Shown: positions 7,064-34,138 of the stretch, one piece after another
How the letters are laid out: each line of letters starts with the position of its first letter
Position numbering within the stretch: the stretch's first letter is position 1
DNA from: an uncultured Verrucomicrobiae bacterium
Lineage (GTDB): Bacteria; Verrucomicrobiota; Verrucomicrobiia; Chthoniobacterales; JAFAMB01
DNA: 64,000 nt
Assembly (NCBI GenBank): GCA_963762565.1
Contig: CAVXLD010000010.1
Location: 32,001 to 96,000 of the forward strand
Direction of reading: 5' to 3'
Notes under the pieces: model-generated
The model's input: the letters and a program-made list of their open reading frames with translations, nothing else
Databases searched by the model: none
Told to the model about the DNA's origin: nothing
Program-made: the position numbers and the translations under genes

Positions 7064-7150
7064 GTGAAAATTGCCTAGGGTAAGTCGTTCTCTCCTAGGA
7101 AGATAGCGATAAGGAGTGAGAAGGAGTAACAAGGAAAAGGAAGTTATTCG

Positions 7151-8363: not shown

Positions 8364-8370
8364 CGCCAAA

Positions 8371-8871: not shown

Positions 8872-9111
8872 GCAGGCTGCAAGCGGCCTTCGCTATGCGA
8901 TGGCCGCGAAGATGATTGGTTCTATTTTCCCGATTTTCCAAAGATTTCAAGATGTTGTATATTGGTCTGACCGAATACCCAAAATATGGGACTTGACTCT
9001 GTCGCTTCACCCGTCTAATAACGCTCGGGTATTGACGGGTCAGTGTACGCCAATTTGCGTATTCCGTTGCCAGGACATAAACGTTATTGTCAGAATCAAC
9101 CTCCTCTTTTC

Positions 9112-9879: not shown

Positions 9880-9881
9880 AA

Positions 9882-10472
9882 ATGGCCTACTACCCACAAC
9901 AGTTCTTCAATCAGGTCTGCATCGCGGCGGCGGTTCTCGGTTCGAATACTGTGAATCTGGATAGTGCAGACGCAATGTCACGTTCAGTTATTACCGATTG
10001 GTCTCAGATTGAAGTTCATTTAGACAACCAAGAGTTAGCGGATCTTGATTACGTAGTTTCTAAAATGCATGTTTTAGTCGGTGAGCTCTGCAACACATCT
10101 ATCTACGATTATTCTGAGGAGAAGGCTGTCGAAGATCTCGTCAAGAGAGTTTTAGGCGATCGGGCCGCAAATCGTTTTTCAGAACTAAGAAATATAAAAC
10201 AAGGTTGGAGATTCGGCGGAGGCGAAGCTCTATCTCCGGCCTCGGGATCCAATTTCTCCGCGTTACTCCAACGAATACGGTTTACTCCTCCTAATTCTCG
10301 TCTTTTCCTTTTGGAGGATGGCTCACTTGCGGTTCGCTGGAAAAAGTCTGACAACTTAAAAATTACGGTTGTCGCACGGGCCTCGGGGTTCGACCTCGTA
10401 GAGGAATCGCCCGAGAACGAAGTTGAAATCAAGGGCTCAGGCCTAGACGAGCTGATAGGGCGATTGAGTTAG
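9882..10472 (+). CDS. Hypothetical protein, middle gene of the TIGR04255 module
   Basis: Starts 2 bp after the TIGR04255 stop; L..GW..GG..LS and DGSLAVRW motifs. Confidence 0.7.
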   Translation: MAYYPQQFFNQVCIAAAVLGSNTVNLDSADAMSRSVITDWSQIEVHLDNQELADLDYVVSKMHVLVGELCNTSIYDYSEEKAVEDLVKRVLGDRAANRFSELRNIKQGWRFGGGEALSPASGSNFSALLQRIRFTPPNSRLFLLEDGSLAVRWKKSDNLKITVVARASGFDLVEESPENEVEIKGSGLDELIGRLS

Positions 10473-10492
10473 ATCGTTACCGATCACACTGA

Positions 10493-10933
10493 ATGAGTCG
10501 GAAGATTTGCGCAGATGAGGAAGAATTACTTTACGGAATCACCTCTGCGGATTTCGACGAGGACGAGCTTATAGGCGAGTTTTTTGCAGGCAAAAAGGTT
10601 TCGGTTAATCGATTATGCATATGGGACCTTGCAACTTCGATTACCTGGTTTAGAGCCGTATTAGAAAAGCCTGACCGAGGCGTGCGGTTACGAGGATACG
10701 CCATCTTCCAGCATTTAAAGTTGAAGGAGTCGACCAAAGAATACCTCAAGATAAACAGAGATCTTCGGCGCGCCAATTTTACAATTTGGGTCGAGGAAGA
10801 CCCCATTCTTCCCGAGAACCCAGATCATCTTCCCGAGAACCCGGCTCACGCCGAGGTTATGCCAAAGGTGCCAGAGGGTCTCTCTCGACATCTTTTGAGG
10901 AATAGCTTCTTTGATCTTGCCCTCACTCTTTGA
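10493..10933 (+). CDS. Small putative ADP-ribosyltransferase-fold protein
   Basis: EELLY...F...VSVNR...VEEDP...NPAHAEV pattern, recognised by eye. Confidence 0.5.
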   Translation: MSRKICADEEELLYGITSADFDEDELIGEFFAGKKVSVNRLCIWDLATSITWFRAVLEKPDRGVRLRGYAIFQHLKLKESTKEYLKINRDLRRANFTIWVEEDPILPENPDHLPENPAHAEVMPKVPEGLSRHLLRNSFFDLALTL

Positions 10934-11139
10934 TCGACATCAACCAAGGCAATATCACGCAAGGATTTGTCGGCATTGTGGGTCATGATGCTGGCTAGCC
11001 GCCGCGCTCCTTCTTCAATCCTTCTGAGCAATTCAAAAAGATAGCGGTTCATAACCCTATCTTGAACACGTGTTCAACCTTGGCAAGCCTAATTTGATTG
11101 GCGCTTCAGAAAGTCTCTGATCTTAGCCACGGTCTCAGC

Positions 11140-11595
11140 CTAGTGTGGTAAGCGGCCAACAATTTTATCGATACCCGATTGCGCGCATATCTCGTCTTTA
11201 TCGCCCCCGGGTGCCCCTCCCACTCCAAGCGCCGCCACGATTTGCCCGTTGACCTTGAATGCGACCGCACCGGGCAGCGCCATCACATTCGGCAGTCTTG
11301 CCAACTCGGGCGCAAAGGGACTGGTCTTGACCAGCTCGAAGAAGGCGCTCGATGTGTCGAATTGAAAAATCGGCCCCAAAGTGACAACGGTATATGCCTT
11401 TTGAAAGCTTGATGTCCCCGTGTGGATGGTTGCACCGTCGCCTCGAAGCACGACCTGAGGGACGCCTGACAAGTTCACGACCGTCGCGGTAACCTGGTAA
11501 TGATGGATAACGCCGACTCTAACTGCTTCGCTTGCGGCCTCGACCGCCAGCTCCAGGGGTAGATTATAACTGTAAGTTCCTTCTGTCGTTGGCAT
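11140..11595 (-). CDS. GlcG/HbpS (DUF336) heme-binding protein, possibly N-terminally truncated
   Basis: VVNLSG..LRGDGA, KAYT, LGVGGAPGGDKDEICA. Confidence 0.85.
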   Translation of the reverse strand: MPTTEGTYSYNLPLELAVEAASEAVRVGVIHHYQVTATVVNLSGVPQVVLRGDGATIHTGTSSFQKAYTVVTLGPIFQFDTSSAFFELVKTSPFAPELARLPNVMALPGAVAFKVNGQIVAALGVGGAPGGDKDEICAQSGIDKIVGRLPH

Positions 11596-11808
11596 GCTGG
11601 ATTTCCTTCTGAGTCACATGGACTACAATCTAATCGTCCATTCAACCGGAGAGGGCAAGACCCGTCTGATCGCGTTCGGGCGACGTGTGGTCCGGCAGGT
11701 TCGATTCCCGCCCCCCTTAAATCGGCTCCAGTAGCAGTGTTTCCCGGACAGCCTGAATCCCTGCCAATTTCGTCCTCCTTGGGAAGGCGGTATGCCTTAG
11801 AGATTCGA

Positions 11809-12093
11809 TCACGGCCCGTGAATGGTGCGGTCGCGGAGTTCAAGTTTCTCTTCTTGGTGGGTGCGTTGAAGAGAGCGCACAATTTCGAGAATCTCCTTCC
11901 GGCCAACCGTGCGCCCCATCATCCAAGCGCGAAGCGCATCGGTCGTAGTCTCTAGTTCTGCGGCCAACGCCGTTTTGGTCATTCCATAGCGCAACCGGAC
12001 CGCTTCGACCTTCTTAATTAGGCGACGGAATTTTCCCCGTTCCGCATTTCTGCGCCCCGGTGCCCGCCACATCAGTGAGTGCCGGTTGGCCAT
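11809..12093 (-). CDS. Small XRE/Cro-like HTH protein
   Basis: GMTKTALAAELETTTDALRAWMMG helix-turn-helix pattern. Confidence 0.6.
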   Translation of the reverse strand: MANRHSLMWRAPGRRNAERGKFRRLIKKVEAVRLRYGMTKTALAAELETTTDALRAWMMGRTVGRKEILEIVRSLQRTHQEEKLELRDRTIHGP

Positions 12094-12267
12094 CAATACC
12101 ACTTTGCCCGAAGGTGGATTCACAAGCAATGGCCGCGAAGCTGAGCTTGTAGTTGGCCCGTGTCAGTTGCAGAATAGTTTTCGCAAAATTTGAGCAGCAT
12201 GACGAGGCAACCGCAATCAGCAAGCTGGCAACAGTGGTAGAACCGTGCTGGGGCGCACCTTTCTCTC

Positions 12268-13218
12268 ATGGAACAGTGGATCACAGCGCTCGAAAAGTGG
12301 GCAGCCGCCCATGAACCACTTATCACATTAACCGGAGTGACTTTTGCCATCGTTGTCGCTCTAATACCGGGCGTTCGAAAGGCGATTCACGCTGCTGAGA
12401 AGTGGCTTTGGCAGCGCATGCCATGGAACCAAAGCAATGCCCCGCCGCCCTGACCTGCGATTTGTCGCGATTCCGCACAGAAGCGGCCTTTGTCAAAATG
12501 CAAGGCCCTGTCGCTGGTGTGAATGCGCAGATCCTACACGGTGTGGCACGTAACGAATGCGTCTACAGCCGGGTTGCCTGTCAAGCTTTTGAGGGCACGC
12601 CTTACCGAACCTCATTTACCTGATCTAGGAGTGCCGGAGATGATTTACGTAGAGAGAGGCTCCGGAGTTCTTGGACACGACCAAGATGCATTAAGGCCCG
12701 GAGAGACCAGATGCGTGGACATCAGGATATCCGGCGTCTTTACCGGCCCCACCCCGAGCAAACCGATAATCGTGCAAATAACTGTTACCGATCAGCTGGG
12801 CAACGAATATCGGCTACCCAAGTCACCGCTTCGCGTCGTGGTCCCTGAGCCGCAAAAAGCCGTCCAGCCGATCCCGGATAAGCCTCCTTCCACTACAAAG
12901 GTCTTTGCAGTCAGGGTGACTCTCCCTTCTGATGTTTGGGAAGTGATCGTCGAATTCTCTGGTGACTTGGCGAAAAACAATTCTGAGGACAGGCTCGGAG
13001 AGCAAGCTAGCTATGCTGCAATTGATGCACTCAACCGAAGATGGGAGAAGCTGAATCCAAATGGCCCCGAACTTACGAACTTCACCTATCCGAATCTCGC
13101 TCGTGACGTTAGCACCAAAGATCTCACTGGTCGCGATGTAAGCAGCCTCACGTCGGGAGCTGTCCACTATCAACTGACGGTAGATCTTCGAGTTTGGATC
13201 ATCAACGGGCCTACTTAG
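12268..13218 (+). CDS. Hypothetical N-terminally anchored membrane protein, frameshift near 12445
   Basis: TM-containing ORF 12268-12453 appears to continue in another frame into ORF 12523-13218 across a C-rich run. Confidence 0.5.
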
Positions 13219-13469
13219 TGCGCGGACCACAGCAGATGGGGCCATTGTAGTACACTTCCCGCTTTTTGGAATTCCTTGCTTTTACGGATTCCACTTTGCT
13301 AGTCTTCGCTTGCAGTGAAGCTCCTCGCGATACTTGTCATCGCTTTTCTTTTGCCTGCGCCCCTGATTCGGGCTCACGACTTCCCAACCTCTACCGGCTA
13401 CCTACTAGCTCAGTCTGAAGAACGCCAAGTCTGGGTTAAGAAAGGGATCTAACTGGAATCGCTGTTTCT

Positions 13470-14356
13470 ATGGGCTGCTTAATACTTCTTTTGGTTGTAG
13501 TTGGATTGTTTACGTTACCCTTTGGGCTTATCTTCTGGGCTCTAGCGGCCATGATCTGCATCATGCGAGGAAACAGTCAGCAACAAAGCCGAGCGGCGAG
13601 CGTAGCGATGCAGGAAATGGAACTGTTACGCGAACAGCAATTTCAACTCACGGCTACGCCCGAGCAGAGACTTGCACGCGATAAACTCCGGGAAGAACAA
13701 CGAGCCGAGAAGGCGAAAGCTCAGCCAACCAGCTTAAAATGTGGTTAGTTCTGGGAGCCATCGGCATTGTTGTCCTTTTCTTCTATGGAGTAGGACATAA
13801 AGATTCCGCTCCGACGCCTCCCCCGGCAACCGCAAGCCTTACTCCGACCGAAAGCCCAACGGCCACGCCGGAGACGGTGGCGGAAGCGTCGCCAACTCCC
13901 TTAGCACAGAGCACACCAACACCCGAGACCGTGGTTATGCGTGCTGAGCCCGTTGCTACCCCGACAGCTGAGCCATATGCTTTTATTGCCAAGATTCAGA
14001 CTGCGTTTGATAACCACGATTGGAGAACGATAACGGATACTACGGCAGATGGAAAGGTCAACTACTTCGGTCACCGTCATGCCTCTAACGCCTATATAAT
14101 CCGAGACATGCAAAATGACGCCGTGATTTACTCATCGGCAAAAAGCACGTATTACCCCGAGACCTTCACTCACGACCTGTCCGACCCTTCCATGATCTAT
14201 GATTCCATTAACGTGTACTCCGAGGCGCAAGAACAGCATGGCCGGTTACACAAAGCGCTCGTCCGTCTTACGGTGGGCTACAGAATCGAAAACGGAGTCC
14301 CTGTTGTCTACGCCATAGTCGAGAAGGTGCTGTCAAAAGCCAAACCGGCCACATAG
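13470..14356 (+). CDS. Membrane protein(s) with Pro/Thr linker and C-terminal globular domain; two overlapping ORFs, probably one frameshifted gene
   Basis: TM segments in 13470-13748 and at the start of 13739-14356, PT-rich linker. Confidence 0.6.
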
Positions 14357-14692
14357 GAATCAAACGGCCTAACGCTCCCTCTGGTTATACCAGACCTTCG
14401 CGCCGCAACTGGCTACTAGGTTGGGCGTTGAGTATTGAGACAGATCGGCTTCTTCTTCGACCGTTTGCCAGTCACCAGACTTAAAACCAGGAATCTTGGT
14501 ACGCAGAAGCTCGCTAGGGAGTATGCACCAGCGCCTGTGAGCCCGCCAAATTTTCCGAACAACAACTATGACAAAACCAAAGTTATTGCACGGCGAATTT
14601 TCCCAGCATTTTTCCCAGATAGATTTGCAATTAAGAGAACGCACGTCTCTTAAAGTTTCCCCGGTGCAGAAGTGATTGGCGCGTTCTCTTTT

Positions 14693-15025
14693 TTAGCGGG
14701 TGTTTATCAAGATCCGAACCTCTTCGGTCACGTATTGCTGAGCCTTGGTAAGCACTTTGCGCTCCTTCTCGTTGCTGGCCAATCCAGGCAACTCCGAGGC
14801 TATTTCTAACACCTGCAATAGTTCATCGTCTCGCCCGTCCGATGCCTCAGATTCGCCATAATCATAATTCGTAGGCTTCGGTCCAGTCTTGTTGACTTGG
14901 AACAGCTTGTTATCCGATCGCCATTGCTTAGCGCCTGGTAGATCCACAGGCATCCCCCGAGCTACATCCTTTGAGATTTGGGGTCGTGACAGGTTTAGAG
15001 CCTGAGCCAATTGCTTATGGGTCAT
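14693..15025 (-). CDS. Lambda Nu1 (small terminase DNA-binding domain)-like HTH protein
   Basis: KQLAQALNLSRPQISKDVARGMPV resembles the Nu1 N-terminus (KQLA..F......I..W...GMPV). Confidence 0.6.
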   Translation of the reverse strand: MTHKQLAQALNLSRPQISKDVARGMPVDLPGAKQWRSDNKLFQVNKTGPKPTNYDYGESEASDGRDDELLQVLEIASELPGLASNEKERKVLTKAQQYVTEEVRILINTR

Positions 15026-15449
15026 GTGGACAACTATGCGAATGCACCAAAGCGTGATGTCGGCGGTCGAATCAAAACCAGCCAGTAATGGTCGGATTAA
15101 AACCAGCCACTTTTTCTGTTTAAATCGATAGAGGACGTTTTTGCAAGCGGTGATTATAGAGCGGCCGGGCGGGTTTGTGATAAAACGCAGATTTCAACGC
15201 CTTTTCAAAACGTATCATTTATTGGAAGCCCGATTTGTTTTAGATTTTGGGAGCGAGGAACGAGCGAACAAGAATCAAACGCAAAAGACAGTGACCTCTT
15301 AGCGCGGAGCGGAAGCGAGCTCAAGGTCAAAACGGAATAAATGGGGGCAGCCCGTAGGGGGGACCTGTTTATGCCGGATTTGAGCTTGAACTCGATGGAG
15401 CAGAGCGCAACGGGGTTGCGGTTGTTAGCGAGAGAGAGCTGTAGGGCGC

Positions 15450-16202
15450 TTAATGACTGGATTTGGAGGGTTTAGCGAGCGGCTGGAGTCTGTAGCTTCG
15501 GCCGTTGATAGGGATGATCTCGGCGTGATGGAGCAAGCGGTCGAGGATGGCGCTGGCGGCAGGCACATCGCTGAGCAACTTGCCCCATTCTTCGATGGGT
15601 CGGTTGGAGGTCATCATGGTGGAACGGTTTTCGTAGCGGCGCATGATGATCTCCAAGAGGATTTCGCCGCTTTTTGGCGGAAGGATTTTGAGCCCCATGT
15701 CATCAATGATCAGCAGATCGGGCTTAAGGTATTTATTGAGCAGACGAGCCTCACCGGCTAAGGGTCTCCTGAGTCAGTAATTCGCGCACTAGATCGAAGA
15801 TCGAGCGGTAAAGGACCACAAAGCCGGCTTTGAGTGCTTCCAGGCCGATGGCTTGAACAAATGACTTTTGCCGACCCCTGGCGGGCCGACAAAGAGCACG
15901 TCTCGGTGCTGACGTACGAAGTGACAGGTGGCCAGTTCATAGATTTGGGCGCGATTGATGCTGGGATTAAAGCTGAAGTCGAAGTTATCGAGCGAGCGCG
16001 GTTCCCGGAAGTCGGCTGATTTGCGCCGACGGGCTAAAAGGCGTTGGTGGCGGACATTGATTTCGTCTTGGAAGAGTAGTTCGAGGAACTGTGCATAGGG
16101 CAGGCGGTTGGCTTCGGCTTCCTGCAACCGCAATTCCAGGCTCTCAAGCAGTCCGGAAAGACGCAGATTCTGAACATGTTGTTTGAGAGTGTTGGTCATC
16201 AT
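15450..16202 (-). pseudogene. istB: IstB ATPase, frameshifted
   Basis: LDNFDFSFNP, GPPGVGKSHL Walker A, MMTSNRP..W, AILDRLLHH..INGRSYRL across more than one frame. Confidence 0.9.
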
Positions 16203-17768
16203 TTTGGTGTTGGTGGTAGTAGTGGTTAATGAAGTCGGAGTAGGTTTTTAGATCGCGGATCAGAGGATGGCTCTCGGCAAAGCCGAAGGCGGTCTGTTCG
16301 GGTTGTTCGCCGATCAGCCGGCGAACGTCTTTGAGCCGGTAAGTGCCGCTCTTGAGTGCCTTGGCGCAGGCGGTATTCAAGGCCGCTGCGGAGTGCTTCT
16401 TAATCAGGTCGCACAGACCCATAATCGAGCGCAGCGACTCTGGACCGCGTGCGTCGAGGCACTCTGAGCCCATTGGCCGCATTGCTCGCCCAGAACCGCC
16501 GCTCGGTTGACCCAATAACGGCACGAGGACAGCACCGGAGCGCTGAAGCCGCCGGCTCCCAAGCAGTGGCTGAACTTGCCGGCTGCGATGCGGGTATGCA
16601 TCCCAACCTGTTCCATGCGCTCGTTGAAGATCCGCACGCAGCGGCTATCCCAGCGGACCCAGACTTGGCGGCCGATCAGTTCCGGTGGCGCTTCGTAAAA
16701 GGCTTTTTCGACTTCCACGTAACTGTCCCGATGGACGCTGCGCCGTGCTTCCTGGAAGCAGGGAAAAAGCGATTCCGGCAGTGGTTGCAGGTGCGGGCGT
16801 TCTTCTTCAAAACAGGCGGCGACTTGTTTGCGCGTCGTGCCATGGATGCGCTTGTCGGCGACGCTGCCTTCCCAATGTTTTAAAAAGAGGTTTTCTTCGG
16901 CTAGAGTTCGAAGCGCCGGCCCTTGAGCGCATTGGTGCGAACGTAAGCGACTCCCCGCTCTACTTTACCTTTGTGTTCGGGCGTCCCGGGGCGACACGGC
17001 ACCACATGCATGCTGTAGTGCCGGCAGAAGTCGGCCAGCTTTGGATTGATCTCCGGATCAAACCAGTCGGCCTTCAGCACCGCCGCCTTCATGTTGTCGA
17101 GGTTCAACAAGAGCGGGGTCCCGCCAAAGCTGCGGAAGCCGTTTTCCAGACAGCGAAGGAACGTCTCGGTGTCCTGCCGGCTGACCGCCTCGCTGTAGCC
17201 TTTGCGCGAATAACTCAAGACCATGCGCAAGACCCAACTGCGCCGCCTTTTGCCTTGGCCCGCATCGATCGGTGCTCCCAAGACCAAAATCCAGCTGCAG
17301 TTCTTCCCCCGGCTGACATTCCAGGCGCCAGACCCGCTCGGGCTGCCTCGATCGCAGCTTGCGCACAAAGCGTTTTACCGATTGATAGGAATCGGTGAAG
17401 CCGTTTTCCTCAACCAAATCCTGGTAAATGCGTTGCGCGCTTAAACCCACTTCGACCTTGGCCATGATGACTTCGGCCAGGGGTTCGCACTGACTCTTTC
17501 GCCCACCGCCTTTGCCGGCGGTCGAAATGGCTGGTTTTGCTTCGCTACTTCCTTCAAAGCCGGCGGTCGAAATGGCTGGTTTTGCTTCCCTAGCTCCTTC
17601 CGAGCCGGGGGTCGAAATGGCTGGTTTTGCGTTTTCAGCTAAGCGCAAATACCGCCCGACGGTCTCGCGATTGATCCCAAGCTCGCGTGCGATCCGCCGC
17701 TGGGACCAGCCTCTTTCGGCTAAACTGTGAATCGTCGTTTGCACGCTCACTTTGAGGACGTTCGACAT
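16144..17768 (-). pseudogene. istA: IstA DDE transposase, several frameshifts
   Basis: SQRRIARELGINRETV HTH, PGEELQLDFG, LDNMKAAV, KGKVERGV spread over at least 4 ORF pieces. Confidence 0.9.
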
Positions 17769-17918
17769 GCCCCATTGGTCCCGCAGATCCGGGCCGTCCA
17801 GGAGCTGTTTTCAGTCCCAAAAAGTGGCTGGTTTTGAACCCCTTAATTTCGACCTTTAGTGGCTGGTTTTGAGTGACCGCTGACAGTGAACCTTGGTTTT
17901 CAGGAGGAGAACACGCTA

Positions 17919-18240
17919 TTTGGTACGGTTTGGTACCAGATTCATTGAATCGTCAAGAACTTTGCCCACGTAGAAGAGGCTCCGGCTTTCGCCCCCGCAT
18001 GGGGTGGTGACCGTGTCCAGAAGACTCCCTGACGGGAGGTTGGTGTATGGTTTTTTTAATTTGAACCGTCGCCGAGCCGCTCCAGTACTTGATCCACACA
18101 CGTTTTGCATACCTTATAAACTACACTTTCGCATTGTTAGGCGCTGCGTTAGTTACACTAACAACCTCGGGGATTCTGGTTCTTACTGATCCAGTTTTTG
18201 CCAGATCTGACTACTCCTGATTTGGGTGTGTAGTGTGGGA
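17919..18240 (+). ncRNA. Candidate structured non-coding region (second)
   Basis: Series of hairpins with + strand G-U pairs, e.g. 17919-26/17933-40 and 18040-53/18063-75; also 18134-40/18158-64 and 18120-26/18228-34. Confidence 0.4.
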
Positions 18241-18290
18241 GCAATCACCAACAAAAGAACGACCATGGTATTTGCCCTCTAGTTCCGTAT

Positions 18291-19086
18291 CTAGTTCAAG
18301 CCTTGAGCCGCTTTCGCTTTCCAGAACGCCTCGACAAATGCCTTGTCATTTTCTTGAGCCAATCTTTCAATGCCCGTAACGTAGTCACGCCATTCTTCTT
18401 CATCCGCTGCGTAGAGCATGTCACTAAGTGGTTTGGCAAATACTGTCGATTCTTCACACACAAACTCAACCAGGACCCCGTCTAGTTCCGCGTTTCTTGG
18501 AAAAAAACTTGTCCACTAGATCCTTGATCTCATCTTCCGAGCCTTTATAATCGTCGTCGTCGTCCTCGGAATCCATATCGATATCTACATCTCGGTCACT
18601 GTCGTTATCGTTATCGTCGCTATCATCCGAGCCGTTGTCGTCGTCTTTATCCGCGTCGTAACCGGGCGAGTCTTCGTCGTCCACATCAATTCGGAATCGC
18701 TTTGTCCCACATGACACAAGCCGACCTTCCTTTAAATCTTGTTCTGCCGTTGGTTGCTTTTTCTTAACCTTTTTCTCTGGATCTTTCCCCACTAAATCCT
18801 TGCTAGGATTCGCGCTCTTGCCCTGCCTGCCCGGTTGGGTCACATGAGCGGTTCCAGGGTTGACCTCGTTGATAAGCTCTTCGTCTGCACCCTCTTCTTC
18901 TTGATCTTCGATTTCTCCTCTTAGATCGTCAATATCTATCTCGCCCGTGTGTTCGTCACTATCATCTGATAAATCATTTTCTGGATCTTCCACATTCTTG
19001 TCAGGATTACTATCTGGGTCCCAGTCCCGAGCATTCGGCAAATCATTTATGTGAATGACAGGGTAGTGGAGCACATAGGAATTCAT
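18291..19086 (-). CDS. Highly acidic, low-complexity hypothetical protein (~264 aa if one extra base in the T7 run at 18501-18507 is removed)
   Basis: D/E-rich ORF 18466-19086; the +1 frame continues PRNAELDGVLVEF...WKAKAAQGLN to TAG at 18291. Confidence 0.65.
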
Positions 19087-19378
19087 TCAATAGACTAACG
19101 GCTTATTTAACGTCATCACATACTGTGATGCCACTCCCCGCTTTGCTTGTTGCTGGGCAGCAAGTTCATCTTGGCATCGAATACAATAAGGCATTTTCAA
19201 ATTTGGATTGTCAGGCGAAGGATTGAAATAAAAAAAGCTGTAATTCCCGAGAACATCTTCCACAAATCTTTGTGTGCGGTTCCCGCAAATTAGGACCAGC
19301 GCTAGACTTTCTCGGATCGGTGAGGTGGCGAATGTTTGCGGCGCGTTTATCTTGCAAAAAATCAGTTCTCGTCTTCAT
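19087..19378 (-). CDS. Small CxxC...CxxC zinc-finger protein, frameshift at the T7 run 19230-19236 (absent from the ORF track)
   Basis: MKTRTDF...KICGRCSRELQLF / YFNPSPDNPNLKMPYCIRCQ...PLVY; its TGA abuts the ATG of the next gene. Confidence 0.65.
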
Positions 19379-19385
19379 GTTTTAT

Positions 19386-19592
19386 TTAGTCCATTTCATC
19401 TCGGAGTTCTATCAACCGTTTTTGGGTGTCGAGTAGAATCAATCGTAATTCGTCGCACCTTTGTCGAAACTGTTTCGCTGTGTTGGCTATCTCGACTCCG
19501 ATCTGCTCGGAATAATTTCGCCAAGCTTCTTTGGTTAATTCTATTTCGTCAGGTGATCTAAGTTCAGTTTGCCAGTATGCTTTCAAGGACAT
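19386..19592 (-). CDS. Hypothetical helical protein
   Basis: 68 aa; start overlaps the upstream stop (TAATG). Confidence 0.65.
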   Translation of the reverse strand: MSLKAYWQTELRSPDEIELTKEAWRNYSEQIGVEIANTAKQFRQRCDELRLILLDTQKRLIELRDEMD

Positions 19593-20089
19593 TATTTGAT
19601 AATTATAACGTTCGGGTGCATTTTCTGGAATGCGTACAGTATTCCACGGTTAGTAGGTGATAACTTATCAAAGTCCTCTCGGCTTATTCCTACCGCTTTC
19701 CGAGCAGCCTGTAGTTCCATGACGTTCCGCGATTTGTCTAAACTATAAGGCTGGGCTGTATTGTTGTCGGAAACGTGGTGAGGAGGTTCCGTTTGCCCGT
19801 CACGGTTAACTTTCGCCCGTTGTGGTGTGTCATCGTCTCCGTCTTTGGTCACACTCTCGGGCGTATCCACTCCTGAGTCAGTATCTGGATCGGTTCCGCT
19901 TTGTCCTGGAACCCAACTCCGTGCATTTTCGTCAGGTTCCCAATCATTTGGCAGATCTACTGCCGCGGTTAATGATTGTCCTGCCATGGCAGGAAATTGG
20001 TCCAGGTAACCACTGGATAAATGGGTTATTCTCGAATTCTTTCGAGCGTTAAAGTTCTCTACGAAAATTTTTCTCTCTTTACTGGTCAT
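19592..20089 (-). CDS. Hypothetical protein
   Basis: 165 aa; ATGA overlap with the upstream gene. Confidence 0.7.
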   Translation of the reverse strand: MTSKERKIFVENFNARKNSRITHLSSGYLDQFPAMAGQSLTAAVDLPNDWEPDENARSWVPGQSGTDPDTDSGVDTPESVTKDGDDDTPQRAKVNRDGQTEPPHHVSDNNTAQPYSLDKSRNVMELQAARKAVGISREDFDKLSPTNRGILYAFQKMHPNVIIIK

Positions 20090-20441
20090 AGTCTTGTCTC
20101 CTTGTATTTCCTGGTTAATTCCTTGGTTTTCCTAACTGCCTCAGTATTACAAGACTGTTCGCCTTTATACCTACGTCCCATTGACTGGAAATTCACGATG
20201 CGATTCCCTGAGAGGTTTTGCGGATTTTCAAACATCAAAGGATTGTTAACCAGATAAACCAGCTTGCTAGTAACCTCTGCGCTGAGGTTTCTGCGTTCAC
20301 TCAAAAAATCACAAAGGGTCCGCTCTTCATTCCTAGGCTGAACGCTAGGCTGCGCTGAGTGACTTTATGATATTCCAGCCATTGTAGAACGTCACTTCTT
20401 AGTCTCTCAATGGCATCAAAATTGGATAGATTCTCGGGCAT
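20086..20441 (-). CDS. XRE/Cro-like HTH regulator, one base missing near 20321
   Basis: MPENLSNFDAIERLRSDVLQWLEYHKVTQRSLAFSLGMKSG / TLCDFLSERRNLSAEV joins into a canonical HTH. Confidence 0.65.
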
Positions 20442-20450
20442 ACAAAACAT

Positions 20451-20820
20451 AACTACACTTCTGCGTGAAGGGAAAAGTGTAGTTGTTCCTTGACGGTCAT
20501 AAGAGCCGTCACTTGTTCCTTGTTAAGTGCGATCATAATCCAGTGGTCTTGGTGATGGGTCTAGATTAGTCAACGCCAAAGCCAGGACCACATGGAACAC
20601 GTTGGTAAACATCTGGGTTTCGTTAGTTATACGGACCTAGATAATGGTTCGGTGGTCTTTTCCAGCCTACAATCCCATGCGGGCTTGCTTCTTTGCCACT
20701 CATTGAATTGCGACGAAGCCTAGATGTTTGCTAACTTTCCCGTTATGAGGATGATGAGAAATGTGTGGTTACCGCTGCACTACCTGGTCGCGATAGCTCG
20801 GCTTGCCGTCGCGATCAGGT
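20451..20820 (+). ncRNA. Candidate ~370-nt structured ncRNA of unknown class
   Basis: Seven closely spaced stems, including an uninterrupted 24-bp helix (20601-24/20712-35) with 5 G-U pairs; no ORF of 60 aa or more in the track. Confidence 0.7.
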
Positions 20821-20997
20821 TTCTTTGCCCTGTTAGGTGCCCTAAAACATATAGGTTCTGATCTGCTCGACCTTGCCCGCTATGGCTGTTTTTTAAACGC
20901 GTTTTAGTGCCCAAAACTCAAATAGTCCCAGACTTACCCTTATCCGATACCAGTCCGAGCCTTAGACTTCAAAAATAATGTAGATAGCCTATCCAAA

Positions 20998-21840
20998 ATG
21001 TTCAGCGCATGCCCTTCCCAAAACTTAGCCAGCCACATAAAGACCCTCGGTTTTCCGTTCCGTCGACTCCCTACTTCACCGCGACGGAAAATTCCCCCTA
21101 GTGTCTGGTGGGTCCATAAAGCCTATGCCAGCCGACAAGCAGTCTCTCAGCTCGACATTGCCCGAGCCTTGCACGTTTCCACTGCCGCAGTATCCCGATG
21201 GGCGAAAAAAGGCGCACCTATTTCGGAAGGTCCCGAAGCCTGCCGTAAATGGCAAAAAGCTAACATTTTCAGAGGCAAACCCGCCCATAAAGCAGTTACT
21301 CAATCACATTCTCAGGTTCAAATCATTTCCGCATTACCCGAGGTGGTTAGCTTTATGCAGTCAATTGCCCACATGGGCAAAAGATATGTGGATGGTCACA
21401 CGGGCAAACCCGTTTCGGTTGGTGGTCGACTAGCTACGCTAGTAGGTCGGACCCTGAACAACAATACAACCAGCATGGTCTTGAAAAAGTTTACCATTCC
21501 CGTCTACAGATCCAGCCGACCTGGCAGGTCACATACATATGCCAGCAAGTTTTCTATAGAGGTTCGGGAAAGTCGCGGCAGACACACTACAAAATTTTGT
21601 GTGCTCGACCAGTGGGGAGTGTGCCTAAGTGTTTGGGACTGGCATTTTGAAGCCGTGGCTGATATGCGCAGGCTACAAGCCCAAGTGGATTTCGAAGCAG
21701 AAACGCAAGCAAGGCTTTTTCGCCACGGCAGACCTAAAGCCCAGAAAAAGGACCTCGAGCAGCTGGACGATGAGAACCTCGAGGACCAACCCGAGGACGA
21801 GGACGAGATTGAAGCCGAGGCGGAATTAGTCGCAGCTTGA
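20998..21840 (+). CDS. Second Nu1-like HTH protein with acidic C-terminus (true start possibly ATG 21125 with a frameshift)
   Basis: VSQLDIARALHVSTAAVSRWAKKGAP...CRKW pattern, paralogous in outline to 14693-15025. Confidence 0.55.
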   Translation: MFSACPSQNLASHIKTLGFPFRRLPTSPRRKIPPSVWWVHKAYASRQAVSQLDIARALHVSTAAVSRWAKKGAPISEGPEACRKWQKANIFRGKPAHKAVTQSHSQVQIISALPEVVSFMQSIAHMGKRYVDGHTGKPVSVGGRLATLVGRTLNNNTTSMVLKKFTIPVYRSSRPGRSHTYASKFSIEVRESRGRHTTKFCVLDQWGVCLSVWDWHFEAVADMRRLQAQVDFEAETQARLFRHGRPKAQKKDLEQLDDENLEDQPEDEDEIEAEAELVAA

Positions 21841-21996
21841 ACGCCCTAGGACGCCCTAGGAATCGTTTTGATGCTCAAAAACGGGCTCCGTGAGACCATC
21901 CTGTACCAATGCTGCGACGCAGCATGGGGCAAACTGGGAACGGCTAAGGCTATGTTTGCCTACTAGGTCACCCGTCATCCGTCATTGCGAGAATCT

Positions 21997-23259
21997 CTAA
22001 AACGGCGCTAAGGGAAACTCTGTGTCTAGTTTTTCCCATCGAGCTTTCTGCTTAGAATTTAATCGCTCTACTGCGTCCCTAGCATTTGCAGCTTCTCCTG
22101 GTAATGTAGTGGGACGTTTGGCTATATCAGCCAGAACCTTCATCTTTGGAAGTTCTGTTATCTCCTTCTTTATTAGGTCGTGGACCGCTTGGTTCCGCTC
22201 CCGTGTCTTCCGAATCCTGGCACCTTCATAATTCCGACCTTGCACCTTGCCGCCTAACCTCATCACTGGTTTAAGCCGCGGATCTCGAGAACAATGTTTT
22301 CGGTTGTCATACAAATAATGAGCGTATTCGGCTAGGTCCATTTTCTGTGTGCGTTTTGTGTGTGCTCTTGCCTGGAACCAACGCACAATTTCCCGCGTCT
22401 TTTCACTCCGCAGTATCCACTTGATTACGGGGTCATTATTTGGATCTATTTCAGCCTGTTCGTGGTCGTGATAACATGGTGGCATTTCACTAAGCAATTC
22501 CCACCATTTCTCTTGCGCTTCGGTCTTAGGCTTTAGTTGTTGTGATTTTGCGAAAACCTTGGCTGCGTCAACGTCTGAACGTGTTGGGTTACATACCGAT
22601 GGGTCCGAACCACTCCACAAACCGTTGCCGTGATATTTGAAAAATCCTTTAGCTTGGCGACCGATGTTTAAGATTCGGTATGCCTCCACTTCGTCACAGT
22701 CTTCTATCCGCATTATCTCAAGTATCAGCTCGGACCTCGACCGTATCCTGATTTTAGAAAGCCTGAAACGATAGGTGTCCTTGTATATCTGCCCACCAGA
22801 ATACCGAACACCGTCCTTGCCATGTGGTGGCAGTTTTCCGATAGTGACATTAGGTGCCGTTGTCTTATAACCGCGCCATTTTTCTGGATCTTCACCAGCT
22901 TTCTTATTCCCCCGAATGACAAAAATGCTATTCTCGATTGTCTCAAGTTCCGCCTGACTAGCTTTTCGTCCCTTGGCATACTGGAGCCCAGCCATTGACC
23001 TCAACGACTTTGTGCTCATCGCATCCCAGAACTCGGTCACATACTTAGCTTGCTCGGGAGCGAAACCATTCGCTTGGTCCCATTCTGTAAATAACGGGTA
23101 CCGATTATCTTTGTGAGCTAATGCAATAGACCGCAACCAATCGGATATAGTTTGCAGACCGTATCCGCTTTTGAATCTATCGAAACCAACCCTTCGGTTA
23201 TTCTCCTGATTCTCTTGGGCAGTCTTTATCCACTCCTCTGCTCTTTTGCTATGTTTCAT
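21997..23259 (-). CDS. Hypothetical basic protein, 420 aa, with DUF2786-like C-terminal helices
   Basis: KMKVLADIAKRPTTLPGEAANARDAVERL resembles the DUF2786 pattern. Confidence 0.7.
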   Translation of the reverse strand: MKHSKRAEEWIKTAQENQENNRRVGFDRFKSGYGLQTISDWLRSIALAHKDNRYPLFTEWDQANGFAPEQAKYVTEFWDAMSTKSLRSMAGLQYAKGRKASQAELETIENSIFVIRGNKKAGEDPEKWRGYKTTAPNVTIGKLPPHGKDGVRYSGGQIYKDTYRFRLSKIRIRSRSELILEIMRIEDCDEVEAYRILNIGRQAKGFFKYHGNGLWSGSDPSVCNPTRSDVDAAKVFAKSQQLKPKTEAQEKWWELLSEMPPCYHDHEQAEIDPNNDPVIKWILRSEKTREIVRWFQARAHTKRTQKMDLAEYAHYLYDNRKHCSRDPRLKPVMRLGGKVQGRNYEGARIRKTRERNQAVHDLIKKEITELPKMKVLADIAKRPTTLPGEAANARDAVERLNSKQKARWEKLDTEFPLAPF

Positions 23260-23415
23260 GGGTTAGGTGCGGCTCCCTTCTTATTTCCAGCGAGTTGCCA
23301 CGGGCGACGCGAGTCTTCGAGCGGCGGGTGCCCGTGTTGCACGAGCGGCTGGAATAGTCCTGAAATTTGGGCACACTCCTGACAAACCCAACTTTTTCTC
23401 TTTCTTCTTCTTTGG

Positions 23416-23619
23416 CTCTTCTTAGTAGCAGCTGGGAACCCTCGTTTTGCTCGCTGACTCGCAAAATCCCAGCTGTATCTAAGAAGAGATATGCCACATA
23501 CTGGTATGAGGACCATCGCAGGGGGGTGGTCATACCAAAACGTAGCCTTAGCCTGGGGAGTGGTTTTTCGAAATCGTAAAAATAAGAGAGGGAGGGGTCC
23601 CTCATACCAAAACGTAGCC
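23416..23619. other. Candidate origin: long hairpin plus two 18-bp direct repeats
   Basis: Nested IRs 23416-25/23479-88, 23429-37/23467-75, 23445-50/23461-66; TCATACCAAAACGTAGCC at 23530 and 23602. Confidence 0.5.
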
Positions 23620-23779
23620 CTAGAATCCCTACTAGGTGTGTGGGGTAGTGGCAGAAAATGCGAGAAAATCCCGTTGCGACGTCGGCAGGAATAGTTGATA
23701 ATGTCGAAGTCGTTAGTTGTTATCATCAGTTCACAGCCGCTCTCGTAAGGAGCGGTTGAACTGTTTAAAGGGGGTCCGG

Positions 23780-23989
23780 TCATTTTTCCACCACCTTCTT
23801 CTTCGGTCGCCCGGCCGGTTTGAATCCACCTGATGCCAGGAATTTGTCGACGTCCTCTGGCTCGATCAAGAACATGTAGCCGTAGCGTTCGGCAGGGAGC
23901 CTGCCGTCGTGTACGTATCGATTGATGGTTAGTGTGCCTTTATTAAGTTTAGCAGCCACTTGGGGAATGGTTAGTAGTCTAGGTCTCAT
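23780..23989 (-). CDS. HTH_17 excisionase-like DNA-binding protein
   Basis: LLTIPQVAAKL...TINRYVHDGRLPA...IEPEDVDKF, then a GRPKK tail. Confidence 0.85.
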   Translation of the reverse strand: MRPRLLTIPQVAAKLNKGTLTINRYVHDGRLPAERYGYMFLIEPEDVDKFLASGGFKPAGRPKKKVVEK

Positions 23990-24063
23990 AGATATAACTT
24001 TCTAATATCTAGGACTACGCCGATCCCAGATAGTACGAAAATGATCGAACTATTTTTTCACGC

Positions 24064-25608
24064 TCACACTGCCTCGTCCTCGTCCTCATCATCCGATTCC
24101 TGCGTGAACGTACGGTGATCGATTAGTTTCTGGGTCGCACGTACAAAGCCGTCATCGGTAGTGAATAACGGTTCGTCAGCCGGTTCGTCCGTAATCTCAG
24201 GCTCAGGTAATTCGAGTGTTGGGACCTGGGTCAGCACATCGGCTATCAATGCATCGCTCCGGCTATTCACCTCACGTAAGAGTGCCGCCGCGTCGTTGTA
24301 CTGCGCATTTGCCCGTCGTGTGTATTCCACTGCCTCCAAATATCGCGGGTGCGCTTGTAGCTTCTGGTTGGCGTTGGCATACCAAGCGTCCTGTGCTTCC
24401 TTCACCCGACCGGCTAGGGTAAAATCGAAGAACGGTTTGACGGCATCACGTGCGATCTGCTCCATGATCTCGGGGTGCAGTGCGCACAGACTATCGATCT
24501 CGGTCTGCTCGTGGTGCATCGCAGCCATCCACTTTTCTCTGCGCTTCTCTGTTTCTTTCAGCGGCGTATCGGGCAAACCGTATTCGATGACTTGTTTTAG
24601 GCTTAAGGCAACTGGATAAAGCTCGATATCAAAGCTGTGCCCGTTCTTCTCCAGTAGTGCCTGCAGCTTACGCGCACAGGTTACCGGCATCGTATATCCG
24701 CTCGGGTCGAGGTCTGAGAAATAGAGCAGGATCAATGGTCTGCCGTCATCGGCTGCTTTGTCCTCCAGTTCCCAAATCATGGCATTCGACAACTCGCCGG
24801 TAGGTAACCACAGCTCACCTCTGACATCTTTAGCAATCGGTGACAGAACATCTTTAAGCGACGACTTCTCACCGACCATTACGATGTGGTAGGGCTGGCG
24901 CTGTTCGACAGCCGGACAGTTCACTGATGGCTTCAGGTACTCAATGGGTCCTATATTATGACCACAGAACAAGCTCGGGTCTGGTTGACCTGACTCCTCA
25001 AAGGTGAATATTTCAGGTCGTGCATTGCGGTGATCGACAATGCGATTGAAGGGTATGTAGTCCAGCCAGCGGGCAGCATCGGCTAGGTCGCCAAGGATCA
25101 CGTAAAATCGATTGTTGTTCTTGTACTGCTTTCCACATTTGCACTCCATGCCGTCAGGCAGATAAACGCCCTTATCGCTAAGGATGTAGTGGAGACCTCT
25201 GATGTGGATCGTGCGACCGGCTGGTACGTAACGATCTACCATCTCGGCGAACCACTTGGCTTTTTCGTGTCCCAGCTTAGTGCTGTATCGGTACGGGTCA
25301 TTCTGATAAGACATCACGGTCAGGTCGCGCCAGTCTGCTATGCCGTTAGCGTCAGCTTCTCGGGTGATCTGATCGTACAACTTACCGCTGCCGCTGAGGT
25401 CTTCTCCCCGTTCCGCTTCCAGCTCCAATGCAAGCGCCATCACTTCACGGCGACGGCATGTGGTCGCGTTGCCCTTACCCTTACCACCATGGTGGACAGG
25501 AGTAAGCCGACCGGCATTGATGTAGTTGAAAACTGTGGTGGGGCTTTTCCCGAGTATCTGTGCGATCTCGTTCACCCCAATAACATCGTTGTCTCTCAAG
25601 ACTGTCAT
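24064..25608 (-). CDS. HTH fused to Spo11/Topo VI-A/JetD-like (winged-helix + TOPRIM) protein
   Basis: N-terminal HTH_17; IRGLHYIL; VGEKSSL; LYFSDLDPSG (DxD); VALS..QV..YGLP; TEIDSL. Confidence 0.75.
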   Translation of the reverse strand: MTVLRDNDVIGVNEIAQILGKSPTTVFNYINAGRLTPVHHGGKGKGNATTCRRREVMALALELEAERGEDLSGSGKLYDQITREADANGIADWRDLTVMSYQNDPYRYSTKLGHEKAKWFAEMVDRYVPAGRTIHIRGLHYILSDKGVYLPDGMECKCGKQYKNNNRFYVILGDLADAARWLDYIPFNRIVDHRNARPEIFTFEESGQPDPSLFCGHNIGPIEYLKPSVNCPAVEQRQPYHIVMVGEKSSLKDVLSPIAKDVRGELWLPTGELSNAMIWELEDKAADDGRPLILLYFSDLDPSGYTMPVTCARKLQALLEKNGHSFDIELYPVALSLKQVIEYGLPDTPLKETEKRREKWMAAMHHEQTEIDSLCALHPEIMEQIARDAVKPFFDFTLAGRVKEAQDAWYANANQKLQAHPRYLEAVEYTRRANAQYNDAAALLREVNSRSDALIADVLTQVPTLELPEPEITDEPADEPLFTTDDGFVRATQKLIDHRTFTQESDDEDEDEAV

Positions 25609-25913
25609 CGGGATCGTGACCCCTTTCTGTTCCGAGCTAGTAAGAGCCGGACCTGTAAATCACAGTGCGGAAATTGATCTCGCCGACCACTGTGATTTAG
25701 CTCACCGAGCACGTCAGCTCTCAACACAGCCGGATCGATCCCAGCCCGTTCCGCGGCCTGGAGGATTCCGCGGATATAGAATTGGATGCGGTGAAGATAC
25801 TCTTCTCGATTTAGGGCATCTGGTGCCGGTTGGACGTCTGGCAATGGCACTGACGGCACCAGTGCCGGAGTAGGTCGCATCGGAGCGAAAAAGGATTTTA
25901 CGGGTGTGCTCAC
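25605..25913 (-). CDS. Hypothetical protein
   Basis: 102 aa; 4-bp overlaps with both neighbours. Confidence 0.55.
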   Translation of the reverse strand: MSTPVKSFFAPMRPTPALVPSVPLPDVQPAPDALNREEYLHRIQFYIRGILQAAERAGIDPAVLRADVLGELNHSGRRDQFPHCDLQVRLLLARNRKGSRSR

Positions 25914-26125
25914 TTCTCCACCCCTCTCGATAGTAGCGCCAAAGCTTCCTCGGCCCGTTGGAGTGGAATCAAGATCGTTTTCTGGATCTTGATATAAGGC
26001 AGGAGACCGCGATTAATCCAGTCCCTGACCGTGTATTTTGAAATGCCTTTTAGCTTGGCAAACTGCTCAACCCGAAGACACCGCGCTTCTATTATTGCCG
26101 GGCTCTCCGGCTCTTTTGGTTTCAT
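25910..26125 (-). CDS. Excisionase/AlpA-like HTH_17 protein
   Basis: LRVEQFAKLKGISKYTVRDWINRGLLPYIKIQKTILIP; first gene inside the right att. Confidence 0.85.
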   Translation of the reverse strand: MKPKEPESPAIIEARCLRVEQFAKLKGISKYTVRDWINRGLLPYIKIQKTILIPLQRAEEALALLSRGVEK

Positions 26126-26323
26126 GAAGTGGTGTCATAAGGATTGGGTTTTCTGTCCCTACGGTCACCTTACCACATATCCAGTGACATTCCATCGTAA
26201 AATCTGGATATCTTGATAGATTTACGAACCTCGAGGGAAAGCGTGACTATAGCGTGACTGGACCGAATGAGGAGAAGTTCAAAGAAAAGAATTCTAGTCG
26301 TAATCAGTTGAATATAAACGACT

Positions 26324-26405
26324 TGCCGGAGAGGGGACTCGAACCCCTAAGGATTGCTCCACCAGATCCTAAGTCTGGCGCGTCTGCCAATTTCGCCACC
26401 CCGGC
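26324..26405 (-). tRNA. tRNA-Leu(TAG)
   Basis: GCCGGGG acceptor stem, CCAGA-CTTAGGA-TCTGG anticodon arm, long variable arm, GGTTCGAGTCC T-arm; CCA not encoded. Confidence 0.97.
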
Positions 26406-26962: not shown

Positions 26963-27087
26963 CGAACCCTGGGATTGCTAGCTGCCTCCCGCAGGCTCAA
27001 TCCGAGCTAAGCTCTGGCACCGTTTCCGACTTCGCCCCATCTCCCCCCTTTAGCTCCGTCGGACAAGTCGAGGCTGTCGGCCTCGCA

Positions 27088-27255
27088 CCTGTCGCGCCGT
27101 AGGCTTTGCGGAGGCGGAAGCGAGGCAGCGCTTCACGGGTGGCGACCCCTTTCGGCCTCGCTACCTGTCGCGCCGTAGGCTTGGCGGAGGCGGAAGCGAG
27201 GCAGCGCTCCACGGTGCCGACCGCTTCGGCCTTGCAAGCAAGGCGCGCTCCACGG
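27088..27255. repeat. Tandem REP-like units (CCTGTCGCGCCGTAGGCTT.GCGGAGGCGGAA / GCGAGGCAGCGCTCCACGG)
   Basis: Two near-identical units; motifs recur at 33882, 34182 and 50944. Confidence 0.7.
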
Positions 27256-33871: not shown

Positions 33872-33931
33872 GCGGTCGGAACCGTGGAGCGCTGCCTCGC
33901 TTGCGAGGCCGGGAACGGTAGGGCGAAAGTC

Positions 33932-34138
33932 TGGTGGGGCTCCCGAAGAACCCAACGCTATCGCGGAGCTGCGGTTTGACTCCGGCCGAACGGCAACCGT
34001 TATGCCGTCGATCGTGCCGAGCCGTGGTCTATCGCTGGGCCGCGGCTCGGCACGTTCACAGGCCCCGCTCACCATTTGGCTAGGGTTTGCGCATTTCGTT
34101 GCTGAATCGCTGGGTCTTTCGGGAGCCTCGCCCCACCA
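33932..34138. repeat. Split-REP doublet, copy A
   Basis: GGCTCC-72nt-GCCGAGCC ... GGCTCGGC-70nt-GGAGCCTCGCCCCACCA. Confidence 0.85.

Follow-up and report, generated by a model that had tools for sequence, protein, structure and literature searches.

A strand-biased structured region between divergent helix-turn-helix genes of an integrative element in an uncultured Verrucomicrobiae bacterium: a candidate terminator-coupled leader or small RNA

We analyzed a window of 64,000 nucleotides (nt) from an uncultured Verrucomicrobiae bacterium (positions 32,001 to 96,000 of contig CAVXLD010000010.1), in which a 19.3-kb genomic island contains a densely folded region at 20451-20820. The structure of this region is real, dense, and well defined, and it is preferred on the + strand. 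The region occupies most of the 547-bp gap between two divergent helix-turn-helix (HTH) genes, namely, one that runs leftward and looks like an XRE-type repressor gene and one that runs rightward and encodes an orphan protein of 280 residues. A functional + strand RNA is probably made here. As to what this RNA is, we tentatively favor a structured leader or small RNA that forms the rightward arm of a repressor/Cro-like switch and ends at an attenuator, a reading that we regard as possible and short of probable.

The RNA fold was calculated with ViennaRNA as the minimum free energy (MFE) structure, and dinucleotide shuffles (n = 100 for 20451-20820) served as the background. The + strand RNA of 20451-20820 has an energy of -147.6 kcal/mol, compared with -108.7 ± 5.66 for the shuffles (z = -6.87), and 0 of the 100 shuffles folds as well; the energy is not equal to that of shuffles, which was the comparison proposed by the initial annotation of this DNA. 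The corresponding energy of the - strand is -114.6, compared with -93.4 ± 5.8 for its shuffles (z = -3.65). All the stems that the initial annotation had listed are present in the + strand MFE structure, including GTGGT/GCCAC, which is seen in the MFE fold of the core domain as well, and the pair list contains the uninterrupted 24-bp helix 20601-24/20712-35 as it had been described, with 19 Watson-Crick and 5 G-U pairs. Helix probabilities were taken as the mean pair probability in the partition function of 20441-20840 on the + strand. Eight of the nine helices measured have probabilities of 0.86 to 1.00, and the branches CGGACC/GGTTCG and AGCCT/GGGCT have probabilities of 0.97 and 0.87, respectively. 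The ninth, designated H2 (20491-97/20505-11), belongs to the MFE structure, yet its probability is only 0.04, as a long-range alternative replaces it.

The preference for the + strand is concentrated in the central and 3′ parts of the region. When each part was folded alone on both strands, with 200 shuffles each, the core (20598-20738) gave z = -6.59 on the + strand, with 0 of the 200 shuffles as good, and z = -2.19 on the - strand. The adjacent parts 20541-20600 (z = -3.90 on + and -2.22 on -) and 20736-20830 (-3.67 and -1.60) are also biased, and the first part, 20445-20540, gave nearly the same value on both strands (-2.55 and -2.46). Among 1277 windows of 200 nt, the one starting at 20601 has the largest difference between strands (-2.68 on + vs. 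-0.08 on -). In a regression scan of 1698 windows of 370 nt, in which the MFE was corrected for dinucleotide content on both strands, the region has z = -4.37 on the + strand, with eight windows lower, and -2.42 on the - strand. The windows that fold more extremely (46126-46650, 49426-49850, 33826-34200, and 52126) are equally strong on both strands and carry palindromes that recur as a sequence family in the host chromosome; the region shares no sequence with these palindromes or with anything else within the 64-kb window. Uninterrupted stems of Watson-Crick and G-U pairs with a span of up to 260 nt were also surveyed over the whole window and in 10 block shuffles. The 24-bp helix is the third longest such stem on the + strand, and its counterpart on the - strand is not present at a length of at least 16 bp. 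The longest stem in the shuffles is 16 to 21 bp, two of the 10 lack any stem of at least 16 bp, and none reaches 24 bp.

The noncanonical pairs show the same direction of bias. In the listed helices, there are 16 G-U pairs and 1 C-A mismatch, and G-U pairs account for 19 of the 125 pairs in the MFE structure of the + strand and for 8 of the 112 pairs in that of the - strand. Such counts from MFE structures are biased because the folding program cannot choose A-C pairs; a second finder that accepts both transition mismatches was therefore used. In the 24-bp helix, this unbiased finder gave 4 G-T and 0 A-C over 23 bp, the fifth G-U being a terminal pair that was trimmed. The shuffle-corrected strand asymmetry is a stronger argument than the G-U count.

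The strand-specific, RNA-like part is more likely to be 20541-20830, approximately 290 nt, than the approximately 370 nt of the initial annotation; the region is structured throughout, as had been stated, whereas its first ~90 nt are strand-symmetric and behave like double-strand palindromes, which is why the shorter extent is preferred. In the first helix, H1 (20451-60/20475-84), two perfectly inverted 10-bp arms are separated by 14 nt, and all 10 pairs are Watson-Crick and none is G-U (probability of 0.96). H1 lies immediately next to the leftward HTH gene, touching its start codon (20450), and may be an operator or, on either strand, a hairpin. Next to H1, the repeats TTGTTCCTTG at 20483-20492 and 20513-20522, identified from 9-mer matches, flank the palindrome H2, and the stretch 20483-20522 is a candidate protein-binding or promoter region. 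Because this 5′ part is strand-symmetric and H1 lacks G-U pairs, H1 and H2 look more like operator or promoter sites in DNA than like RNA.

The symmetry of H1 and H2 raises the question of whether the region as a whole acts at the DNA level, either as protein-binding palindromes or iterons (origin, packaging, or recombination) or as folded single-stranded DNA (a single-strand origin or promoter), which we consider very unlikely. The + strand has z = -4.60 even with DNA energy parameters (-2.46 on the - strand), the motif CCTAGAT occurs twice (20636 and 20719) and TCTAGAT once near 20563, and the island encodes a type IIB topoisomerase A-like Toprim protein, all of which would suit a DNA signal. 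On the other hand, double-stranded sites should be symmetric, whereas the core has z = -6.6 on the + strand and -2.2 on the - strand, and the five imperfections of the 24-bp helix are all G-T on the + strand, which favors RNA. Moreover, the island open reading frames (ORFs) scanned include no recognizable gene for a relaxase, a rolling-circle Rep, or conjugation, and 80 loci that carry the Toprim protein in other genomes hold nothing similar.

The strand-biased part begins with H3 (20543-52/20582-91), a 10-bp stem with additional inner pairs and a probability of 1.00. It is followed by the core, or H4 (20601-20735), in which the 24-bp helix closes a three-way junction with a probability of 0.99; one branch is formed by 20632-37/20646-51 and the other by 20652-56/20695-99, the latter enclosing 20664-68/20681-85. 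Three further hairpins follow the core on its 3′ side: H5 (20736-46/20751-61), which has one C-A mismatch (0.86); H6 (20763-69/20774-80), in which three of the seven pairs are G-U (0.98); and H7 (20782-94/20808-20; 0.98). H7 is a 13-bp G+C-rich stem with eight G-C pairs and a 13-nt loop, and it is followed by TTTCTTTG up to 20828. The U-run after H7 is present on the + side only, and H7 is terminator-like on the + strand only. The 3′ boundary of the structure is sharp, as 20821-21000 is unstructured (z = +0.24), and the spacer 20829-20997 separates the structured part from the 280-residue protein gene, the first gene downstream on the same strand.

From these features, we infer that the region is a control region between the leftward XRE-like repressor gene and the rightward orphan HTH gene. 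H1 and the TTGTTCCTTG repeats around H2 would act as double-stranded operator or promoter DNA, and from about 20541, the + strand would be transcribed into an RNA of ~290 nt. The nascent RNA would fold into H3, the three-way junction closed by the 24-bp helix, H5, H6, and H7 with its U-tract, and H7 would stop most rightward transcripts ~170 nt before the 280-residue protein gene. Termination at H7 would release a stable structured RNA and leave this gene silent, and read-through would yield its mRNA. RNase III needs roughly 20 bp, according to the part of PMC3181467 that deals with this enzyme. Because the 24-bp duplex exceeds this length, it may be a substrate of RNase III, and processing might, speculatively, set the half-lives of the short and long forms.

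Several observations weigh against this reading. Sequence searches gave no homologue of the RNA in phages, plasmids, or the 80 Toprim loci, so that there is no support from covariation or conservation. A promoter scan found no sigma-70-like site on the + strand upstream of the RNA, and in 20 kb of the host chromosome, 4 consensus promoters were found vs. 9.3 expected from shuffles, and 16 terminators composed of a hairpin and a T-run vs. 23.1 expected. As such sites are not above shuffles in this genome, likeness to a terminator carries little weight here. The 13-nt loop of H7 is larger than that of typical intrinsic terminators, and H7 is not listed by a terminator scan that allows loops of 3 to 8 nt; no canonical terminator was found after the 280-residue protein gene either. 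No antiterminator pairing was identified, the 3′ hairpins forming one dominant structure with an MFE frequency of 0.40. A small ORF (ORF A) overlaps the core and may be coding. Finally, the G-U bias, which the initial annotation had taken as a signature of selection on a single-stranded + molecule, is real but modest once ascertainment bias is removed: the ratio of 16 G-U to 1 C-A holds for the listed helices, but over the five listed stems that match MFE helices, the unbiased finder gave only 9 G-T vs. 3 A-C. T and G predominate on the + strand (T 109, G 96, A 83, and C 82), so that mutation bias could contribute to the G-T excess.

The same structural evidence would also suit a stand-alone ncRNA gene (noncoding RNA of ~290 nt) with its own promoter and terminator and a job other than controlling the 280-residue protein gene. 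Possible roles would be those of a trans-acting antisense regulator, of a scaffold or decoy that binds island proteins (HTH, Toprim, or winged-helix-like), or of a factor in replication or in immunity to related elements. A separate promoter could fit into the 170 nt of unstructured sequence after the discrete 3′ end, the size and the three-way junction exceed the needs of a simple attenuator, and there is no match in Rfam. We nevertheless consider this gene unlikely. A duplex scan of 1260 island windows of 60 nt gave no clear outlier (the best, at z = -3.8, is implausibly bulged), and blastn within the window found no extended complementarity. The promoter scan recognized no promoter for such a gene, conservation lends it no support, no RNA-binding or RNA-guided domain was recognized in the neighbors scanned, and a fold search with the model of the 420-residue island protein described below returned nothing at E ≤ 0.001.

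No ORF of 60 residues or more is present over the region, as had been noted; the longest encode 43 and 45 residues on the + strand and 44 residues on the - strand. ORF A (20592-20723, +; 43 residues) has its AUG in the single-stranded linker between H3 and H4 and its stop codon in the 3′ arm of the 24-bp helix. ORF B (20724-20861, +; 45 residues) has its AUG immediately after the stop codon of ORF A, inside the 24-bp helix. An mRNA for a small protein, in which ORF A is translated and the structure controls translation or stability in the manner of a leader peptide or a type I toxin, would account for several of these details: the AUG of ORF A is in a single-stranded stretch, with an AGGA (20584-87, in the 3′ arm of H3) 4 nt upstream, ORF A spans almost exactly the H4 domain, and its stop codon is followed at once by the AUG of ORF B. 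ORF A is also a predicted protein in public collections, where it forms a singleton cluster, and its codon score under the island model (0.093) is above those of all 21 spurious ORFs compared and within the lower 18% of real-gene chunks. Under the host model, however, 17% of spurious ORFs score as high, and a 43-codon open frame is not rare by chance. No homologue of ORF A was found at E values up to 10 among proteins of 23 to 76 residues in 5.8 billion clusters, the sole candidate scored being ORF A itself, and neither ORF A nor ORF B matched a protein family or resembles a known toxin family. ORF B has a codon score like those of spurious ORFs, is not among the predicted proteins of public collections, and runs through the terminator-like H7, its hydrophobic stretch being the translation of the two H7 arms. 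Coding alone would also leave the G-U-rich hairpins H5 to H7 downstream of ORF A unexplained, and we consider a small-protein mRNA highly improbable.

The outline of the core invites comparison with small mobile elements. Miniature inverted-repeat transposable elements (MITEs), Correia elements, and elements like repetitive extragenic palindromic (REP) sequences are palindromic units that form a long hairpin when transcribed, and the core resembles them in being a unit of ~135 bp bounded by inverted repeats of ~24 bp. It differs from them in that it is single-copy in the window, shows no target duplication, has arm mismatches that are all G-T on one strand, and is embedded in a row of other hairpins. 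The region might thus be a functionless relic, i.e., a decaying MITE-like unit of 135 bp with 24-bp terminal inverted repeats accompanied by chance hairpins, with a G-T bias that arose from strand-asymmetric C-to-T mutation; we consider this quite unlikely. The terminal repeats (23 nt, 83% complementary) and the long-palindrome families elsewhere in the genome are consistent with such an origin, as are the T- and G-richness of the + strand and the lack of conservation support, and the frameshift in the XRE-like gene and a broken IS21 copy suggest that the island may be decaying. Nonetheless, there is no second copy in the 64 kb or in the 80 foreign loci, no similarity to the repeated palindromes of the host, and no target-site duplication when 20598-20600 is compared with 20736-20738. 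Six further independent, well-defined hairpins arranged end to end and the sharp boundary of a hairpin with a U-run would not be expected from one insertion, and none of the 1277 windows has a more extreme strand asymmetry, whereas the regional skew is common to many kilobases.

The palindromes of the host chromosome are long and strand-symmetric and are located at 46185-46574, 49636-49744, 33882-34200, 27087-27214, and 41047-41227. Among them are a perfect 29-bp inverted repeat (46185-46213/46404-46432), the sequence of which is found again at 33933-57/34108-32, and, at 27087/27163, a direct repeat of 52 nt. No other windows in the 64 kb fold as strongly as these palindromes, which match no Rfam family and look like a REP-like repeat family.

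The initial annotation had proposed that the region is a candidate novel ncRNA and contains no recognizable group I or II intron, tmRNA, RNase P, or riboswitch motif. The comparison with Rfam 15 (4227 models, gathering thresholds) agrees with the second point, as the region matches no family. A novel ncRNA class would require homologues with compensatory changes; the searches for relatives found none, and this wider claim is not supported here. Over the whole window, the sole match is a tRNA at 26324-26405, and ARAGORN likewise found a tRNA-Leu at 26324-26405 as the only tRNA in the window. A permissive Rfam scan of 20000-21300 (E up to 10) returned four matches, all with E values of at least 2 and scores of 11.6 to 18.2 bits, compared with thresholds of 50 to 114 bits. 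A blastn search of 20400-21000 in its distant mode gave no match in phage and plasmid collections.

Because the adjacent 280-residue protein gene is an orphan, the 514-residue Toprim protein of the island was used to collect related loci from a species-representative genome collection. This route gave 119 homologues, of which 44 were aligned, and 80 loci were kept of the 91 confirmed; the 80 loci are from Alphaproteobacteria and Actinomycetota, with identities of at most 45%. Searches of these loci with nhmmer and blastn gave only chance matches of 14 to 29 nt, and covariance model R1, built on the core, retrieved only the window itself in the 1.34 Mb searched and nothing in the loci. In a tblastn comparison of 25 island ORFs with the 80 loci, the Toprim protein (80 loci), the integrase (1 locus), and one HTH protein (1 locus) were matched. 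To judge from these gene contents, the 80 loci are different elements from this island.

Some known classes of element-encoded RNA were considered and rejected. A retron msr-msd RNA does not fit, since no RVT-type domain was found in the 31 ORFs scanned against Pfam and the downstream gene encodes an orphan HTH protein; the model of the 420-residue protein, which gave no polymerase-like match, does not support a retron either. For a ToxI-like RNA of a type III toxin-antitoxin system, the only direct repeat in 20400-20900 is a weak pair of 20 nt (75%), and the proteins fail as well, with no defense-system match beyond HTH motifs. An IS110 bridge RNA or an IS605/IS607 omega RNA is not supported, as no IS110, TnpB, or IscB domain was found among the neighbors. 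The only insertion sequence (IS) in the island is the broken IS21 copy, 2.6 kb from the region. It lies at 15065-17872 and has terminal inverted repeats, and its fragments of IstB_IS21, rve, and Mu-transposase-C are distributed among several frames; three 45-bp tandem repeats are located at 17514-17648.

The island is bounded by a 49-bp direct repeat (7015-7063 and 26327-26375, 97.96% identical), the right copy of which is within the tRNA-Leu gene, and contains a tyrosine-recombinase gene at 7185-8363 that was recognized from weak Pfam and NCBIfam matches. The G+C content is lower in the island (0.44-0.50) than in the flanks (~0.53-0.57). As a lead only, bL25 look-alikes point to Verrucomicrobiota as the probable host phylum. 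The initial annotation had placed the region inside an element, and the 19.3-kb island with its tyrosine integrase and boundaries (7015-26375) agrees with this; it had further called the element a satellite, for which no capsid, terminase, or helper-interference gene was recognized among the island ORFs scanned. The integrase and att repeats show an integrative element and do not in themselves point to a satellite. Most island ORFs match no family of Pfam, PHROGs, NCBIfam, or PADLOC, and no reverse transcriptase, transposase, relaxase, terminase, capsid, or defense-system protein was recognized near the RNA among the ORFs scanned. Within the island, the ORF at 9043-9879 (+) matches the sporadically distributed family TIGR04255 (E = 4.8e-32), and the next ORF (9882-10472) has a weak match to the PADLOC candidate PDC-M32A (E = 4.4e-05).

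The 280-residue protein downstream of the RNA (20998-21840, +) has an HTH at about residues 41 to 83, and no homologue but the protein itself was found among 5.8 billion protein clusters. It had been described as Nu1-like; the match behind this name is a 33-residue HTH match to phrog_57 (small terminase; E = 0.0015), which says no more than HTH. The same HTH also matches P22_Cro and YdaS (E = 0.014-0.03), and the phrog_57 matches in the island (E = 0.0015 and 0.0021) are at the HTH level only. The leftward HTH gene (20086-20450, -) is split into ORFs of 49 and 72 residues by a frameshift near 20310-20325, where the two frames read ...GMKSGPFVIF* and ...EERTLCDFLSERRNLSAEV...; this break could mark a pseudogene, result from an error in the assembly, or represent a programmed frameshift. 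The divergent position that had been assigned to an XRE gene is correct, but the gene is split and has no profile match, and it is by eye, read across the break, that it looks like an XRE-type HTH gene. In the leftward operon downstream of it, 18466-19086 (-) encodes an extremely acidic (D/E-rich) protein of 206 residues without a family.

To the right of the orphan gene, 21997-23259 (-) encodes a protein of 420 residues, with a small family of 21 representatives (E ≤ 0.001) among 1.84 billion; the nearest of these (P0122-P0127) have identities of 34-44%. The AlphaFold model from a 17-row alignment has a predicted local distance difference test (pLDDT) score of 85.5 and a predicted template modeling (pTM) score of 0.41, and the model from a single sequence is poor (pLDDT of 41). 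Foldseek found nothing in the PDB at E ≤ 0.001 with this model, the best matches (E ≥ 0.18) being winged-helix-type proteins; no Pfam domain and no usable atlas match were found, and tblastn against plasmids and phages gave no match. The predicted structure gives no clue to a partner of the RNA. The Toprim protein (24064-25608, -; 514 residues) has an N-terminal HTH_17 and a Toprim region that matches phrog_6247, "DNA topoisomerase" (E = 8.6e-24). In the 44-sequence alignment, E247, D299-x-D301-x-x-G304, R137, and Y141 are invariant, and relatives such as P0017 and P0083 carry a fusion to an HATPase_c or a Topo-VIb transducer domain. The relevant section of PMC7671362 gives such a residue pattern for proteins of the type IIB topoisomerase A, Mini-A, and Topo VIII groups. 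The profile match of the Toprim protein to a solved Topo VI A has an E value of only 0.079.

By sequence or covariance model, the region matches no known family; the kind of RNA that it most resembles, which is coupled to a terminator and exerts control from the switch region of mobile elements, is already known. In the accounts given in PMC4825925, the small RNA IsrK, made from the 5′ part of an operon of the Gifsy-1 prophage in Salmonella, stops at a terminator of its own, read-through of which produces the orf45-anrP mRNA, and in the related seqA/CI RNA immunity region of the satellite phage P4, the CI RNA from an untranslated leader enforces premature termination. The arrangement here is similar in that a candidate structured RNA and a terminator-like hairpin are followed by a regulatory-looking HTH gene. 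Rfam holds IsrK and C4-type models, and the region has no sequence or covariance-model similarity to them (no Rfam family at E up to 10). Unlike these systems, the RNA is several times larger, no complementary boxes like seqA and seqC were identified, the host is a member of Verrucomicrobiota and not an enterobacterium, and transcription and termination are predicted.

A second parallel is the Qs/Anti-Q/IRS1 control region (prgQ-prgX) of plasmid pCF10, in which, as far as PMC3181467 outlines it, the 5′ RNA Qs, with a small ORF inside it, is terminated at IRS1 upstream of the functional genes, the HTH repressor gene prgX is divergent from the prgQ operon, and RNase III takes part. The region would share with pCF10 the divergent HTH repressor gene and a structured 5′ RNA with a small ORF and a terminator-like hairpin. 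It differs in that the transcripts of pCF10 overlap as mutual antisense RNAs, whereas the arrangement proposed here includes no such overlap or countertranscript, and in that ORF A is unlike a pheromone precursor, lacks homologues, and comes from a different phylum. The mRNAs of hok/sok-type systems are also highly folded RNAs, a few hundred nucleotides long, in which long-range helices conceal the start codon and two small ORFs are adjacent or overlap. In contrast to them, ORFs A and B match no toxin family, ORF B is unsupported by codon usage or gene calls and crosses H7, and no antisense RNA gene is evident.

It is also conceivable, and in our judgment decidedly unlikely, that the region is the first example of a new RNA class, whose members would be large (~290 nt) and structured and would come from a poorly sampled lineage of integrative elements in Verrucomicrobiota-like hosts. 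The core could then do more than attenuate, for example as a scaffold or specificity factor for the 280-residue, 420-residue, or Toprim protein, or as an immunity determinant between related elements.

As a prediction from a single sequence, the region is a well-defined candidate and not an established discovery. To our knowledge, few regulatory RNAs have been described in the host phylum. If the RNA is real, it would place control by RNA in an almost entirely uncharacterized family of integrative elements, and if the terminator-coupled leader that we favor is correct, it would extend switches of the IsrK, P4, and pCF10 style beyond Proteobacteria and Firmicutes.

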